Source of the DNA: Atopobium sp.
Lineage (GTDB): Bacteria > Actinomycetota > Coriobacteriia > Coriobacteriales > Atopobiaceae
Direction: 5' to 3'
Assembly (NCBI GenBank): GCA_015259105.1
Contig: JABZGZ010000001.1
Span: forward strand, 20,670-84,669
Length of the DNA stretch: 64,000 nucleotides
Position 1 is the first letter of the stretch; every line of letters starts with the position of its first letter. The notes under the pieces are model-generated. The model searched no databases and had not been told where the DNA came from. It worked only from the letters and a program-made list of their open reading frames with translations. Positions 2,999-51,120 of the stretch are shown piece after piece. Both the position numbers and the translations under genes were made by a program.

Positions 2999-3011
2999 AG
3001 CGAGAAACCCG
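2999..3011 (-). repeat. Copy of the dispersed motif in minus orientation (cgggtttctcgct)
   Basis: The reverse complement of agcgagaaacccg is cgggtttctcgct. With its flanks it matches 17 of 19 positions against the copy at 3672, in inverted orientation. Confidence 0.55.
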
Positions 3012-3054
3012 TAGAATAGGGAAGCGAATACTTTTACAGTGCACAGGAGAAGAG

Positions 3055-3591
3055 ATGAACCAAAGCTCGCAGAACATAAGTGGTCAGCAGAATGCAGGTA
3101 GCCAGCTAAACGAAGTCCGCTCGGAAAACGCTCACGTAACAAAGATCCTTTTTGTCTGTCACGGAAATATCTGCAGGTCAACTATGGCGCAATATGTCAT
3201 GCAAGACCTTGTCGAGAAAAACGGTCTGGCAGAATCGTTCTTCATTGACTCAGCCGCAACATCCACAGAAGAGATCGGCAATCCTGTGGACCCTCGCACG
3301 CGTAGAAAACTGCAGCAAGAGGGGATTCATTGCGGCAATCATCGTGCCAGGCAGATGACTCGCGCAGATTACGAGGAGTTTGATTACCTCATTGGTATGG
3401 ATCACAACAACCTGCGCAACATGATGCGTATGCTCAAGGATGATCCGCTTGGAAAGGTTTCGTTGCTTCTTGACTGGACAGAGAAGCCTCGCGACATTGC
3501 GGATCCGTGGTATTCGGGTAATTTTGACCTGACGTACGAGGATGTTACAGAAGGCTGCGAAGCGTTGCTCAAGAAAATTTTAGCCAGATAG
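3055..3591 (+). CDS. Low-molecular-weight protein-tyrosine phosphatase
   Basis: Carries the P-loop CHGNICRS (CX5R-S) and a downstream DPWY motif. Has an AGGAGA ribosome-binding site before the ATG and a ~35-aa Q/S-rich N-terminal extension. The family assignment is from established knowledge of low-molecular-weight phosphatases and ArsC-type reductases. Confidence 0.85.
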   Translation: MNQSSQNISGQQNAGSQLNEVRSENAHVTKILFVCHGNICRSTMAQYVMQDLVEKNGLAESFFIDSAATSTEEIGNPVDPRTRRKLQQEGIHCGNHRARQMTRADYEEFDYLIGMDHNNLRNMMRMLKDDPLGKVSLLLDWTEKPRDIADPWYSGNFDLTYEDVTEGCEALLKKILAR

Positions 3592-3671
3592 CCTTCACCG
3601 CAATTTTCCCGGTAACTAGTTCCGGCAAATCATTCCGACAAATTTTTCAGAAAAATTTTGCAAAATTCTTC

Positions 3672-3684
3672 GGGTTTCTCGCCA
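3672..3684 (+). repeat. Dispersed motif GGGTTTCTCGCCA, copy 1
   Basis: Exact 13-mer. Its partner GGCGAGAAG lies at 3724-3732. Confidence 0.7.
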
Positions 3685-3949
3685 ATGGATACGCCCGGGT
3701 CAGCGGTTTGACCTCGCAAAATAGGCGAGAAGAAAGATCTCGCAGCTAGAAGGTATCAAACGGTCTTCACAAAGCGTTCATCTTTTAGAGATTTTAGGCT
3801 TGTTTCTTGTCAAAAATGAGTGTAAAGTAGACGGGCTGCTCAAACAGGACAATTATGTCTAAAGGCAGTATGTACAGGACGTGGTCCGCTGGGGAAGAGT
3901 ACCCGATGTGCTCTCAAGGTCCCATGACCACCGAAGGTTAGGAAAGAGC

Positions 3950-4570
3950 ATGGTTAATACCATCCTCGGCCGCAAGCTGGGCATGACCCAGGTATGGGAC
4001 GAGAACGACAACGTCGTTCCTGTTACCGTCGTTCTTGCTGGCCCCTGCACCGTTTCACAGGTAAAGACTGTTGAGACGGACGGCTACAATGCCGTACAGA
4101 TTGGCTTCGGCGACATCTCCGAGAAGCATGTCAACAAGCCAATGGCTGGTCACTTCAAGGCACAGGGCGTCGAGCCAATGCGTTACCTCCGTGAGGTCCG
4201 CGTTGAGGATGCTTCTGAGCACAAGACCGGCGATGTTGTCACAGTTGCTGACTTCTCCGAGGTCACCGCTGTTGACGTAACAGGCACTTCTAAGGGTAAG
4301 GGTTTCCAGGGTACCGTTAAGCGCTGGAACTTCTCTCGCGGTCCAATGACTCACGGTTCTCGTAACCAGCGTCGTCCAGGTTCCATTGGTCAGTGCGCAT
4401 ACCCTGCACGCGTTCGTAAGGGCCTTCACATGTATGGTCACATGGGCGCAGAGCGCGTTACGGTCAAGAACCTTAAGCTTGTCCGCGTTGATGCTGAGCA
4501 GAACCTCATGCTTATCAAGGGTGCTGTTCCTGGCGGCAAGAATGCCCTCGTCCAGGTCCGCATGGCCTAA
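3950..4570 (+). CDS. rplC: 50S ribosomal protein L3
   Basis: Begins MVNTILGRKLGMTQVWDEN, the canonical L3 start, after an AGGAAAGAG ribosome-binding site. Confidence 0.93.
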   Translation: MVNTILGRKLGMTQVWDENDNVVPVTVVLAGPCTVSQVKTVETDGYNAVQIGFGDISEKHVNKPMAGHFKAQGVEPMRYLREVRVEDASEHKTGDVVTVADFSEVTAVDVTGTSKGKGFQGTVKRWNFSRGPMTHGSRNQRRPGSIGQCAYPARVRKGLHMYGHMGAERVTVKNLKLVRVDAEQNLMLIKGAVPGGKNALVQVRMA

Positions 4571-4609
4571 GGGCCTTTAGGCAAACACTTAGGCTAACAA
4601 GGAGACAAC

Positions 4610-49004: not shown

Positions 49005-49109
49005 AGGACTCCTTGTAGTTTTTCAATATAAGAGTAGCCCAAAATAGCTTATAGGCGTTAAAATTTCTCCTTCGTGTTACAAGATTTAATGATACTTGGG
49101 AACTGACAC

Positions 49110-49688
49110 ATGGGTCTACTTGAAATTTTAATGCTTGGTGTGGCGCTTGCAACAGATGCATTCTCTGTCACTATCTCTAATACTTTTGCCTTTGATGACC
49201 ATAGGGTTTCTCGCCTCATGCGTATGCCTCTTTTCTTTGGCCTCTTTCAGTTTGGTATGCCTCTTGCCGGTTATTTTGTTGGCGGCATTGCAGCAGAATT
49301 GATTGAGAAGTATGCAGGAATGGTCTCTTTAGTCATCCTTGGCTTCATCGGTTCAAACATGCTGTACAGCGGCTATAAGGCGCTCAAAGAAGACGCTTCT
49401 GAGGAAGAAGACGAAGAAGCTCAGCAAGACTCTACGACGCTCTCTTTTGGAAAGCTGCTCTTTCAAGCTGTTGCTACAGCAATTGACGCATTTGCTGTTG
49501 GTGTAAGTTTTAGGGCACATAGTGTAGACATTTTGGTTGCCTCGGCGCTCTTTGGCATTATTACTGCCATTCTCTGCACCATTGCTCTGTTCATTGGCAA
49601 AAAACTTGGTTCTCTTCTGGGCGACCGTGCCGAGATGGTGGGCGGAATAGTACTTATCCTGATTGGACTAAAAGCCTTTTTTGGATAA
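49110..49688 (+). CDS. mntP: Manganese efflux pump MntP
   Basis: MGLLEILMLGVALATDAFSV..., with two DUF204 halves and six transmembrane helices. Confidence 0.8.
   Translation: MGLLEILMLGVALATDAFSVTISNTFAFDDHRVSRLMRMPLFFGLFQFGMPLAGYFVGGIAAELIEKYAGMVSLVILGFIGSNMLYSGYKALKEDASEEEDEEAQQDSTTLSFGKLLFQAVATAIDAFAVGVSFRAHSVDILVASALFGIITAILCTIALFIGKKLGSLLGDRAEMVGGIVLILIGLKAFFG
49204..49215 (+). repeat. Variant of the dispersed motif (GGGTTTCTCGCC)
   Basis: 12-mer inside mntP. Confidence 0.35.
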
Positions 49689-49732
49689 AATCTGTTTGAC
49701 CAGACGGATTATGTAGCAGGTAAGGAGGTAGT

Positions 49733-51019
49733 GTGAAGTTTATCCCAGATTGTCTGCGCCAGAAGATGCATAAAACTTTTGGACCAAAAGACCCTGATGA
49801 GAAGATTACTCCACCAACTGCCACTTCTGTTACAAGAACCTCATTTATTATCCTGGCTGTCTCGGCGGTTGCTGCACCTGTAATAGCTACGGTAGCAAAT
49901 GTTTTGAGCCCAGGAATTTCTTATGTTCAGCAGGAGCTTCTTCCTCCACAGCTTAATTCAAAAGTTCCAGGCTACGCTCGAGCGCTTATTCAACTTGCGC
50001 AACGAGAGGGCTCCCTCAATCTTTTATGTACTTCAAAAGAAGCGGTAAAGTCCCTGGTAGAAACATATTCAAGAATGTTTTCTATGCCTGTTACGGTGGG
50101 TGAGGCAACAGAGGAAGAAATTCAGGAGTTTATTCAGCAAACATATACTTCTGGTAAGAGTTCGGAGTCTGAAACTTCTGATACCAAATCTGGTACTGAT
50201 TGGGGTTTTGAGAAACCCGATGTCATTTTCTTGGCAAGCGAAGCTCTCATGCAAAATTTTGAGACTTCCGCATATTGTCAACCGTTTGAAGTTTCTTCAA
50301 CAGACCAGTATGTGCGCCCTGAGTTTTTTGACGCCAACGGACACTGGTATGCCTACGCTGCAGATCCATTGGTTTTACTGGTAAATCAAGAACGCCTTAA
50401 TGAGAAAAAGATTTTGCGTCCTCACGAATGGACCGATCTTCTTACAGATGGCCTGCGTGGAAGGTATGTTATTCCTGACCCCGCACTTACGTATACGGGC
50501 AAGAAGTTTGAATCGCTCTTTTTAGGCCAGTATGGTATGGATAAAGGCGCTCAAATTATCCAAAGTTTGTTTGAAAATGTTGACGCATTTTCTGAGAGTA
50601 CCCATCAAGCTATTAGAGACACAGGATTTGGCAGGTACAGGGCTTGTGTTTGTCCGCTGAGCGCTGCTTATAGGGCAATTACTAAAGACGATTTTGATAA
50701 TCTTTCAGTTATTCTGCCAGGCACTTCTTATTTCTCTACGATAAGGTCATTTGTATGCCAGGGGTCAAAACATACGTATTCAGCGTATTTATGGCAGGAA
50801 TTTATTACCAAACGAGATTCTGCTGAACACATGGGAGAAATGGACTCGTTCTTCTCGCCAGTTATTGAGGGAACACCAACGCCTTGGTATGCGGATCGTC
50901 TGAATTTGACAGCAGTAAGTGAATCAATGCAGATAGCTCCTGCTCCCACCGATGCTGAAGGCAATCTCATCAAGCTTGAAGACGTCCATGCTGCATACAG
51001 TAAGTTGGTCAACGCATAA
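49733..51019 (+). CDS. Membrane-anchored protein resembling periplasmic solute-binding proteins (Fe3+/polyamine/thiamine type)
   Basis: GTG start after AAGGAGG and an N-terminal transmembrane helix. The central region WYAYAADPLVLLVNQERL...PHEWTDLL...GRYVIPDP resembles ABC solute-binding proteins. There is no permease or ATPase gene nearby. Confidence 0.45.
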   Translation: MKFIPDCLRQKMHKTFGPKDPDEKITPPTATSVTRTSFIILAVSAVAAPVIATVANVLSPGISYVQQELLPPQLNSKVPGYARALIQLAQREGSLNLLCTSKEAVKSLVETYSRMFSMPVTVGEATEEEIQEFIQQTYTSGKSSESETSDTKSGTDWGFEKPDVIFLASEALMQNFETSAYCQPFEVSSTDQYVRPEFFDANGHWYAYAADPLVLLVNQERLNEKKILRPHEWTDLLTDGLRGRYVIPDPALTYTGKKFESLFLGQYGMDKGAQIIQSLFENVDAFSESTHQAIRDTGFGRYRACVCPLSAAYRAITKDDFDNLSVILPGTSYFSTIRSFVCQGSKHTYSAYLWQEFITKRDSAEHMGEMDSFFSPVIEGTPTPWYADRLNLTAVSESMQIAPAPTDAEGNLIKLEDVHAAYSKLVNA

Positions 51020-51050
51020 CCTTTGCCACATCTTATGAGTTTGGATACAA

Positions 51051-51079
51051 AAAACGGCCCAGGTAAACTAAGCCGTTTT
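51051..51079. terminator. Bidirectional terminator hairpin
   Basis: AAAACGGC-loop-GCCGTTTT. Confidence 0.55.
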
Positions 51080-51094
51080 GCTGTATAGATGGAG

Positions 51095-51120
51095 TGGCGA
51101 GAAGACCGGGTTTCTCGCCA
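51095..51120. repeat. Hairpin containing copy 5 of the dispersed motif
   Basis: tggcgagaa-gaccgggt-ttctcgcca is a 9-bp perfect stem. The 13-mer gggtttctcgcca occupies 51108-51120. Confidence 0.65.

Follow-up and report, generated by a model that had tools for sequence, protein, structure and literature searches.

A 13-base motif, GGGTTTCTCGCCA, is dispersed through a 64,000-nucleotide (nt) stretch of the genome of an Atopobium species (contig JABZGZ010000001.1, positions 20,670 to 84,669; below, "the window" means this whole stretch). The window holds 6 exact copies, 6 with one mismatch and 24 with two or fewer mismatches, while dinucleotide shuffles gave 1.46 copies with two or fewer mismatches (shuffle maximum 5). 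The motif or its sub-words were the most frequent k-mer in the window at every k from 9 to 14, and the core word TGGCGAGAA occurred 17 times where 0.5 were expected. The motif is real and not a chance assembly, and these counts bear out the claim, made in a preliminary description of this DNA, that its copies are far above expectation. We tentatively favor a model in which the motif acts like a DNA uptake sequence (DUS), a word upheld at the level of the DNA; this reading ranks first because DNA uptake sequences are the only known class that joins all the features we observed. It is likewise possible, if short of probable, that GGGTTTCTCGCCA is a lineage-specific word of the low-GC Atopobium/Lancefieldella group that is read as double-stranded DNA, and not as RNA or protein. 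The fuller version, in which GGGTTTCTCGCCA would be the uptake sequence of oral and gut low-GC Atopobium/Lancefieldella, with a dialect, GCTCTTCTCGCC, in Parafannyhessea and with the word captured by modular repeats, is more doubtful.

The genome is that of an oral member of the Atopobium/Lancefieldella parvula group and has a GC content of ~49%. The DNA examined comprised ~84 kb of this one genome and metagenome fragments chosen by the presence of the motif and a following G. Scans of metagenome and viral collections with this 14-mer returned mostly single chance matches in unrelated taxa, and served as background and as the source of ~13 Atopobium-like loci. Three of the relatives (L133, L194 and L196) were placed taxonomically by motif content and GC alone. 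Open reading frames (ORFs) that lack Pfam confirmation are crude gene calls. Because such calls misplaced copies in GC-rich loci (the copy at L133 1806 actually lies beside a terminator), coding status was given only to copies in Pfam-confirmed genes or long ORFs.

All five exact copies listed in the preliminary description (3672, 31117, 34902, 36976 and 51108) lie on the plus strand where it had placed them, but a sixth, at 21040 in ecfA, had been overlooked. Its three near-copies also exist, each with one mismatch, although the one given as 2999 spans 2998-3010 on the minus strand and those at 38657 (MacB N-terminus) and 49204 (MntP) are coding. The copies and their partners in the window are as follows.

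2998-3010, minus strand: one-mismatch copy GGGTTTCTCGCTA, 1 nt upstream of a -10-like TAGAAT before the gene for a low-molecular-weight phosphatase (LMWPc); right-hand inverted end of a composite repeat.
3672-3684, plus strand: exact copy, 80 nt past the LMWPc stop, opening a conserved ~270-nt leader before rplC (L3).
3721-3731, plus strand: core complement ATAGGCGAGAA, which can pair with 3676-3686 in the L3 leader (11-nt arms, 91% complementary, 34 nt apart).
9622-9769: degenerate copies at 9622 (GTGTTTCTCGCTT), 9699 (GGCGAGAA) and 9762 (TTCTCGCC) in the 303-nt L24-L5 spacer, on either side of a terminator.
21040-21052, plus strand: exact copy in ecfA, reading K-G-F-S-P-D, kept in 9 of 10 related assemblies.
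22719-22731 (minus strand), 22797-22809 (plus strand) and 23052-23064 (minus strand): one-mismatch copies in truA, reading G-E-K-L, G-F-S-A and G-E-K-L, kept in relatives.
31117-31129, plus strand: exact copy in the convergent nrdG/EamA region, within the last 10 codons of the minus-strand EamA ORF (L-G-E-K-P).
34902-34914, plus strand: exact copy whose first G is shared with the TAG stop of the PTS-EIIA gene.
36976-36988, plus strand: exact copy 3 nt past the dinB stop, in a called ORF of 73 amino acids (36962-37183), where it reads Q-G-F-S-P.
38657-38669, plus strand: one-mismatch copy at the N-terminus of a MacB-type permease (K-G-S-L-A-R; KGSLARF).
49204-49216, plus strand: one-mismatch copy in mntP, reading R-V-S-R-L.
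51095-51120: abutting inverted pair TGGCGAGAAGACC / GGGTTTCTCGCCA, 18 nt past the stop of the glutamine synthetase III (GS-III) gene and beside a bidirectional terminator.
56778-56803: palindrome TAGGGCGAGAAG-CC-CTTCTCGCCCTA after the RNase H gene, with the core variant CTTCTCGCC.

Comparison of the copies with two or fewer mismatches revealed that positions 5-10 (TTCTCG) are near-invariant and positions 1-4 and 11-13 variable. The conserved core is TTCTCGCCA, with weaker flanks (cAAc...gaTG). Across 45 non-orthologous copies the flank preferences were weak (C at -4, A at -3/-2, not T at -1, A-T-G at +14 to +16), and the preference at position +13 is biased by the search pattern. Beyond these preferences, flank alignment showed the surrounding sequences to be unrelated, most copies being bare 13-mers. 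A broader pattern, CGAGAA-N3-C (83 copies), was set aside as mostly a codon artefact (NNC GAG AAR NNC).

Exact copies occur at ~1 per 10 kb and the 9-mer core at ~1 per 3.8 kb. All exact copies are on the plus strand (6:0), while the split is 17:14 for the core, 5:7 for its coding copies and 10:14 for copies with two or fewer mismatches. The words of the Chi, KOPS/FtsK and SRS/SpoIIIE systems are 5-8 nt long, show strong leading-strand skew and are not enriched in spacers or hairpin pairs. They are over-represented in coding and non-coding DNA, at ~1 per 4-12 kb, with upkeep at the DNA level, and in this the Atopobium motif resembles them. Unlike them, its core is unskewed both overall and in genes, which rules out a polar word of this type.

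The motif is confined to a lineage. Copies at orthologous sites were present in all parvula-group assemblies examined, and L133, L194 and L196 (GC 52-56%) were denser, with ~0.5-1.7 copies per kb at two or fewer mismatches. A Parafannyhessea locus (GC 61%) contained no 13-mer; there, TTCTCGCC occurred 9 times where 0.6 were expected, with the consensus GCTCTTCTCGCC mentioned above, and the 16 TTCTCGC sites at that locus included 7 in spacers, the S10-L3 and post-L24 junctions among them. The motif was missing from two Atopobiaceae loci with a GC content of 65-66%, of which one belongs to an Olsenella strain, and 1.03 Mb of non-Atopobium genomes, fetched through a DinB query, contained no copy with one or fewer mismatches. 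In 2.05 Mb of viral contigs, each with one seed match, further matches with two or fewer mismatches occurred at ~0.03 per kb, compared with 0.375 per kb in the window. The sole viral contig with two exact 13-mers (L339; 7.2 kb, GC 0.50; copies at 1800 and 3272) may be a prophage or a misclassified piece of a motif-bearing host. Our literature searches found no paper with either 13-mer and no relevant paper on Atopobium repeats.

Copies inside genes carry much of the argument. Although the motif is ~10 times denser between genes than within them (3, 5 and 7 copies at 0, 1 and 2 mismatches in 6.5 kb of spacers; 2, 6 and 16 in 57.6 kb of coding DNA), the coding copies are themselves in large excess: shuffling codons within genes predicted 0, 0.06 and 1.1. 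With proteins held fixed in synonymous shuffles, the coding copies at 0, 1, 2 and 3 mismatches numbered 2, 7, 17 and 41, against 0.017, 0.14, 2.1 and 17.5 expected; for the 7 with one or fewer mismatches, the expectation was 0.14-0.17 in the global synonymous shuffle (a 41-fold excess) and 0.59 in the within-gene shuffle (12-fold). The 9-mer core was found 12 times in genes, 5 times sense and 7 times antisense, where 1.8 ± 1.3 occurrences were expected. Rare codons are used to spell the word. Phe-Ser-Pro was encoded as TTC-TCG-CCA in four of five cases, though TCG accounts for 11% of Ser codons, and Glu-Lys-Pro as GAG-AAA-CCC in three of seven, with AAA making up 26% of Lys codons and CCC 11% of Pro codons. 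ORFs contain roughly one in three exact copies (2-3 of 6 in the window, 5 of 15 metagenome seeds). In metagenome fragments of related genomes, the exact 13-mer was present in hisS and dapB, where it reads G-F-S-P in both, and it also occurred in the C-terminal portions of two ORFs, one YidC and one flavodoxin-like, in each of which it reads G-E-K-P.

We asked whether common peptides and preferred codons could produce such numbers. Decoy 13-mers encoding the peptides EIDGV, LVPD and KELVE in preferred codons exceeded synonymous shuffles only 2-7-fold, each on one strand and in one phase, whereas the coding copies of the motif fill five strand/phase classes. Coincidence of codons and peptides as the cause of the coding copies is ruled out by the rare codons, the five classes and the excess over decoys. 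Since the coding copies exceed synonymous shuffles and use rare codons, a force on the DNA sequence itself shapes these coding sites in this lineage. Among these decoys, AGATTGATGGCGT (E-I-D-G-V; 1140, 8195 and 18404) and GCTTGTTCCAGAT (L-V-P-D; 14972, 34746 and 54083) are each repeated exactly three times in unrelated genes, always on the sense strand and in one frame, and are therefore driven by common peptides and preferred codons.

Outside genes, ~9 of ~40 spacers of at least 40 nt hold a copy with two or fewer mismatches, and copies of either orientation tend to sit no more than ~100 nt from the end of a gene. Four of the five exact copies first listed do lie 0-90 nt past a stop, at distances of 80, -1, 3 and 88 nt, with 31117 at 102 nt. 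On the opposite strand, the GS-III stop lies 18 nt from the 51108 copy, which is 88 nt from its upstream stop. The broader statement that copies are mostly at stop codons stands in part, since 31117 is in the tail of the EamA ORF, 36976 is in the 73-residue ORF and 21040 is deep in a gene. A TAG fused to the motif (TAG|GGTTTCTCGCCA) was found both at 34902 and at an unrelated locus (L098). In the spacer survey, copies kept no shared spacing from promoters, start codons or terminators.

Between strains, the motif was 3-9 times less variable than non-coding flanks. Nucleotide diversity (pi) was 0.019 at 3672, compared with 0.18 in the non-coding upstream flank, 0.033 compared with 0.118 at 34902, and 0.047 compared with 0.119 at 36976. 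Of 14 strains, 12 kept the 34902 copy intact, despite high variability over the 30 nt that follow. An intrinsic terminator (34970-34997) lies 55 nt past this copy, giving the order stop, motif, variable ~55-nt spacer, terminator. The most divergent strain (L023) carried one substitution in each of three copies, a different one each time, which reads as decay and not as coordinated change when the aligned sequences are compared.

The EIIA and DJ-1 genes on either side of the 34902 copy (34444-35625) share one frame: between them come one TAG and 50 open codons, within which the terminator falls. This arrangement is probably a coincidence. A translation signal or stop read-through was rejected as the role of the motif, as the terminator intervenes between EIIA and DJ-1 and other copies are in other frames.

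Some copies occur as inverted pairs that fold, and the hairpins and pairs first noticed at 51095-51120, at 56778-56803 and in the 3676/3724 region were all confirmed. The 51095-51120 pair has 9-nt arms (TGGCGAGAA at 51095-51103, TTCTCGCCA at 51112-51120) and folds at -15.6 kcal/mol with no U-tract; in ten strains both arms were kept while the four central bases varied. The 56778 palindrome has 12-nt arms (56778-56789 and 56792-56803), folds at -24.1 kcal/mol (z = -5.8), also lacks a U-tract and is conserved across strains with a variable loop. Pairs without a spacer recur at 51095 in the window, L133 6611 and L194 8549, pairs 12 nt apart in L136 (9006/9031), L176 and L179, and overlapping pairs at L133 6029 and 56778 in the window. 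At L136 the pair resembles a terminator, with a U-run after its 18-bp stem (-25.6 kcal/mol).

These structures, together with the many sense copies 0-100 nt past stops and the complementary partner 34 nt from the L3-leader copy, would suit a role in RNA as a stabilizer in the 3' untranslated region (UTR), a terminator stem or a processing site. We consider such a role improbable. When the 3' UTR at 34902 was aligned, the core took part in no pairing and covariation was absent; coding copies run antisense as often as sense; most hairpins have no U-tract; and no Rfam family matched. Single copies lack the stem partner of an intrinsic terminator, and among the folded pairs a U-run follows at L136 alone. 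The earlier proposal of a transcript 3'-end stabilizer is not supported by these results, as single copies have no conserved pairing partner or covariation and only the inverted pairs fold. A known RNA family was rejected as well: there was no Rfam match at gathering score, and E values up to 1 gave only chance hairpin matches. A tRNA 3'-end or att fragment was rejected too, as the window holds no tRNAs.

The motif is also part of a modular intergenic repeat family, one member of which lies in the S10-LMWPc spacer of the window. The modules are located as follows.

2833-2953 in the window, plus strand: module B, a tandem array of 2.8 units of 31 nt (GCCTGATTTTCTCACCATGTCTGAGCGATTT), all of which include a degenerate copy of the motif.
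221-690 in L196; 1830-1934 and 7342-7650 in L100; 2208-2332 in L187; 8208-8507 in L194; 565-685 in L091: related modules.

TRF reported a period of 31 at 2833-2919. The last unit of module B and its inverted partner form a ~57-nt hairpin (-51.3 kcal/mol, z = -5.9), and the module is 80-88% identical to modules of L100, L194 and L196 at other loci. Whereas the window holds module B and the right-hand motif alone, L196 carries, between other genes, a 470-nt composite consisting of a hairpin, the motif, module B, module C and an inverted motif. Its module C is made of three units (GCCTGATTTC..AAAGAATCTGT) and a hairpin, and its ends, GGGTTTCTCGCCAGGT, are 16-nt perfect inverted repeats 321 nt apart; across the composite copies, inverted ends of 13-16 nt lie 197-321 nt apart. 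The S10-LMWPc spacer of relatives, L091, L100 (at two sites), L187 and L194 all carry modules 80-96% identical to these, in differing orders and combinations. Since none of the module-bearing fragments encodes S10, LMWPc, L3 or EF-G, they represent separate loci. We conclude that this is an undescribed modular family spread over at least six loci, with an architecture like that of BOX, BIME or NIME. Directly upstream of the 31-nt array, in the same spacer, is a separate 15-nt tandem repeat, CCGCTTGCGCCGAAC (2795-2835; 2.7 copies, 92% matches).

The resemblances to described families are partial. In the NIME of Neisseria, dRS3 repeats flank RS modules, and dRS3 is a small inverted repeat that is a target of phage integration. 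As in NIME, a short repeat (~20 nt) brackets variable modules in mosaic spacers whose module order differs by locus; unlike dRS3, the Atopobium motif is not palindromic, and no phage integration was seen. Like the BOX elements of S. pneumoniae (PMC3049150) and the BIME/REP of E. coli, the Atopobium repeats are modular and intergenic. They are built from few module types with internal units that vary in number, they have inverted ends and hairpins predicted to be strong, they lie between genes or after stops, and they include lone units. They differ from BOX and REP in having no sequence similarity to them, in that the motif is also intragenic and mostly a bare 13-mer, and in that no RAYT or other transposase was seen.

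This family raises the question of whether the motif is, at bottom, part of a modular mobile element of the BOX/BIME/REPIN/MITE kind that is non-autonomous and mobilized by a transposase in trans; it would supply both the repeat unit and the terminal inverted repeats, and solo copies and hairpin pairs would be remnants or minimal forms. The L196 composite with its perfect ends, the recurrence of modules in varying order at six or more loci unrelated to the S10 region, the very stable fold of module B with its motif-bearing units, the enrichment of copies between genes and after stops, and the repeated minimal inverted pairs (window 51095, L133 6611, L194 8549) all speak for this. We nonetheless rate it as unlikely to be the whole account. 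Exact copies lie in housekeeping genes, on both strands and in rare codons, and we know of no REP, BOX or MITE family with rare-codon copies inside housekeeping genes. Copies are mostly bare 13-mers with unrelated flanks. The fetched loci had no transposase beside any copy; a RAYT/Y1 transposase was likewise absent beside these copies and from the ~84 kb of genome, and no target-site duplication or clean empty site was found for the composites. REP and REPIN elements are strictly extragenic, whereas exact copies here occur in Pfam-confirmed genes. REP units are imperfect palindromes of 20-40 nt whose doublets form hairpins; the 13-mer itself is not palindromic, yet pairs and the 57-nt hairpin of module B do exist. 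Most copies are outside composite elements. Thus, of the earlier suggestion of a REP/MITE-like element or protein site, the dispersed repeat is genuine and a modular REP/BIME/BOX-like family exists, but a pure REP, MITE or BOX account, which covers the modules, the pairs and the gene-end bias, does not explain mostly bare 13-mers with exact, rare-codon copies in housekeeping genes.

One insertion sequence (IS) was encountered, an IS3-family element with HTH and rve ORFs at L479 30-1640 (equivalent to ~31045 in the window), inserted in the nrdG terminator stem of one strain and ending TGA..GACCCCCAAAAGTTAGAC. These ends are unrelated to the motif, and we rejected IS-derived ends as its source.

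Conservation of a short word with sharp edges also suits a protein that binds it, and protein recognition of the motif is probable. It seems distinctly unlikely, however, that the motif is the target of a DNA-binding protein peculiar to this lineage and active genome-wide, whether a global regulator, a nucleoid protein or a segregation factor, which would bind half-sites, palindromes and phased arrays. The sharp edges, conserved core and weaker flanks would fit such a protein, as would palindromic pairs with kept arms and a variable center, the array at 31-nt spacing (three helical turns) upstream of the LMWPc promoter, and copy numbers in the hundreds. The core TGGCGAGAA matches what we take to be the Streptomyces AdpA consensus, TGGCSNGWWY, at 9 of 10 positions. 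Nine relatives keep the 2998 copy, which abuts the -10-like TAGAAT in a fixed position. Of 10 relatives, 7 have it as an exact copy, and the block TTGGCGAGAAACCCGTAGAAT is kept while the upstream sequence is not. Some strains have a copy before rpsL, and related cores occur at the same ribosomal-protein junctions in Parafannyhessea. Weighed against these points, intergenic copies are mostly at gene 3' ends and not at promoters, ~30 of ~40 spacers have no copy, distances to starts or -10 elements are inconsistent, and it would be unusual for selection to keep regulator sites within ecfA, hisS, dapB and truA. Selection of sites across the genome would let a global DNA-binding protein account for all the data, but neither a candidate protein nor a logic of regulons came to light. 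The narrower idea of a promoter element, prompted by the 2998 copy beside TAGAAT, was rejected: no -10 accompanies the other copies at a constant spacing, and a consensus scan found no promoter at 2700-4000.

Copies bracket genes at two loci, as cassette boundaries would. LMWPc sits between inverted copies at the S10-L3 junction, where other genera have other cargo, and DJ-1 and dinB lie between direct copies, with the nearest outside relatives of dinB in Firmicutes (≤54% identity); the composite repeats, too, have inverted ends, 197-321 nt apart. A site-specific recombination signal, whether a cassette boundary or inverton repeats, is nevertheless highly improbable. Gene order and orientation were identical in 10 (S10), 15 (DinB) and 10 (EIIA) related assemblies, genera with different S10-L3 cargo lack the motif, no recombinase gene is present in the window, and copies within genes cannot be boundaries. 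The cassette-boundary proposal fails on the same grounds, as neither the LMWPc pair (10 assemblies) nor the DJ-1/DinB pair (25) showed presence/absence polymorphism and the genera with other cargo have no motif.

A model that accommodates most of these data is uptake of DNA bearing the word. A surface or competence protein would favor fragments carrying it, and repeated uptake and recombination of such fragments would raise its frequency wherever it is tolerated. In spacers, the outcome would be dense single copies and inverted pairs that double as hairpins or terminators, and selfish modular repeats would carry the word or have captured it. In genes it would be sparser, in frames that give harmless peptides (x-G-F-S-P, or G-E-K-P on the other strand). 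The accessible DNA shows an excess on both strands, copies in permissive coding frames (G-F-S-P/G-E-K-P) and, in a small sample, inverted pairs at gene ends. An uptake bias, its receptor and natural competence are what we infer from the over-representation, coding copies, orientation, gene-end pairs, conservation and lineage limits described above.

To our knowledge, sequence-specific DNA uptake occurs in Neisseriaceae and Pasteurellaceae only. Like the DUS of Neisseriaceae (GCCGTCTGAA and its dialects) and the uptake signal sequence (USS) of Pasteurellaceae (AAGTGCGGT), the Atopobium motif is a short, exact, lineage-specific word with weaker flanks, found on both strands within genes and, at higher density, between them, with a dialect in a sister genus. 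About a third of copies fall in ORFs, as in N. meningitidis, where 34.5% of uptake sequences do (PMC2817400). Frame and orientation bias within genes has been reported for uptake sequences (PMC2346458), and coding copies are frame-biased here too. Inverted pairs at gene ends, possibly serving as terminator stems, have a counterpart in the DUS pairs located in terminators (PMC3630211, PMC1852404).

Several observations weigh against uptake. Uptake sequences reach ~1 per 1.2 kb in H. influenzae and N. meningitidis and ~1 per 3 kb in A. pleuropneumoniae; copy totals in other genomes are 1,471, 765 and 1,892. The Atopobium motif falls short of this typical density of 1 copy per 1-3 kb, being 3-10 times sparser. 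It is written in rare and not preferred codons, and all six exact copies in the window share one strand even though the core and its coding copies do not. It is integral to modular repeats, as inverted ends and within the 31-nt unit, which a mobile element or binding-site array explains more directly, and one copy is fixed beside a -10-like hexamer. The host is a Gram-positive actinomycete without known competence or uptake specificity, and Pfam annotation of the 64-kb window alone revealed no competence genes. The evidence base, as noted above, is ~84 kb of one genome and fragments. We know of no uptake specificity in any Gram-positive bacterium.

If the uptake reading is right, this would be the first sequence-specific uptake outside Proteobacteria and the first in any Gram-positive organism; self-recognition in transformation could then be tested in an abundant oral actinomycete, and so in a new phylum, and the receptor would have to differ from ComP. 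If it is wrong, the motif would still mark an undescribed protein-recognized element accompanied by a new modular repeat family. Both of these could serve as handles for strain typing or genome engineering in Atopobium/Lancefieldella, a group with almost no genetics.

Pfam annotation showed that the window begins with fusA, rpsJ and the LMWPc gene, followed by the S10/spc/alpha ribosomal-protein operons (2.4-19.7 kb). Next come ecfA/ecfT, truA, glycosyltransferases, nrdDG, an EamA transporter (minus strand), DegV and Fe-ADH; then PTS-EIIA, DJ-1, dinB, an ABC/MacB pair, a large glycosyltransferase and ligA; and finally mntP, a solute-binding protein, glutamine synthetase III (minus strand), polA, the RNase H gene, nhaA and tatAC. 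DinB is 97-99% identical to proteins of oral-origin "Atopobium sp." genomes and metagenome-assembled genomes. For S10, L17, RNase H, EIIA and TatC, exact proteins in conserved gene order were found in many human oral and gut metagenome contigs.

The relatives of DinB outside the Atopobium group suggest that the dinB module was acquired, because the nearest are from Firmicutes and reach ≤54% identity. The 73-residue ORF that follows (36962-37183) overlaps the dinB stop by 11 nt, was called in 10 of 10 relatives and has no Pfam match; its predicted peptide (..SRANRAKIFMPFDALKGL..) resembles the YolD-type proteins that partner Y-family polymerases.

Two ribosomal-protein junctions have features of their own. 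Comparison with L221, L222 and L223 revealed that the rpsJ (S10)-rplC (L3) junction (2721-3949) is an insertion hot spot in Atopobiaceae: its cargo is LMWPc in the window, a ~5-kb glpD-like/glpK operon in L221 and a 460-740-nt gap in L222 and L223. The L24-L5 junction is also broken in these relatives, with unrelated genes after L24. In the window, the 303-nt rplX (L24)-rplE (L5) spacer (9615-9917) contains a terminator (9664-9698) and, ahead of the L5 start, a region that looks structured. An AT-rich palindrome, AAATTTTTCAGAAAAATTT (3636-3660), immediately precedes the 3672 copy; it is only loosely conserved in relatives and resembles what we take to be the Firmicute CodY box, AATTTTCWGAAAATT. 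The ~270-nt leader before rplC (3685-3949), a candidate ribosomal-protein leader with no Rfam match, is nearly invariant in the parvula group, and its 3' half (GTGTAAAGTAG...GTGGTCCGCTGGGGA...AAGGTCCCATGACCACCGAAGG) is conserved across Atopobiaceae genera.

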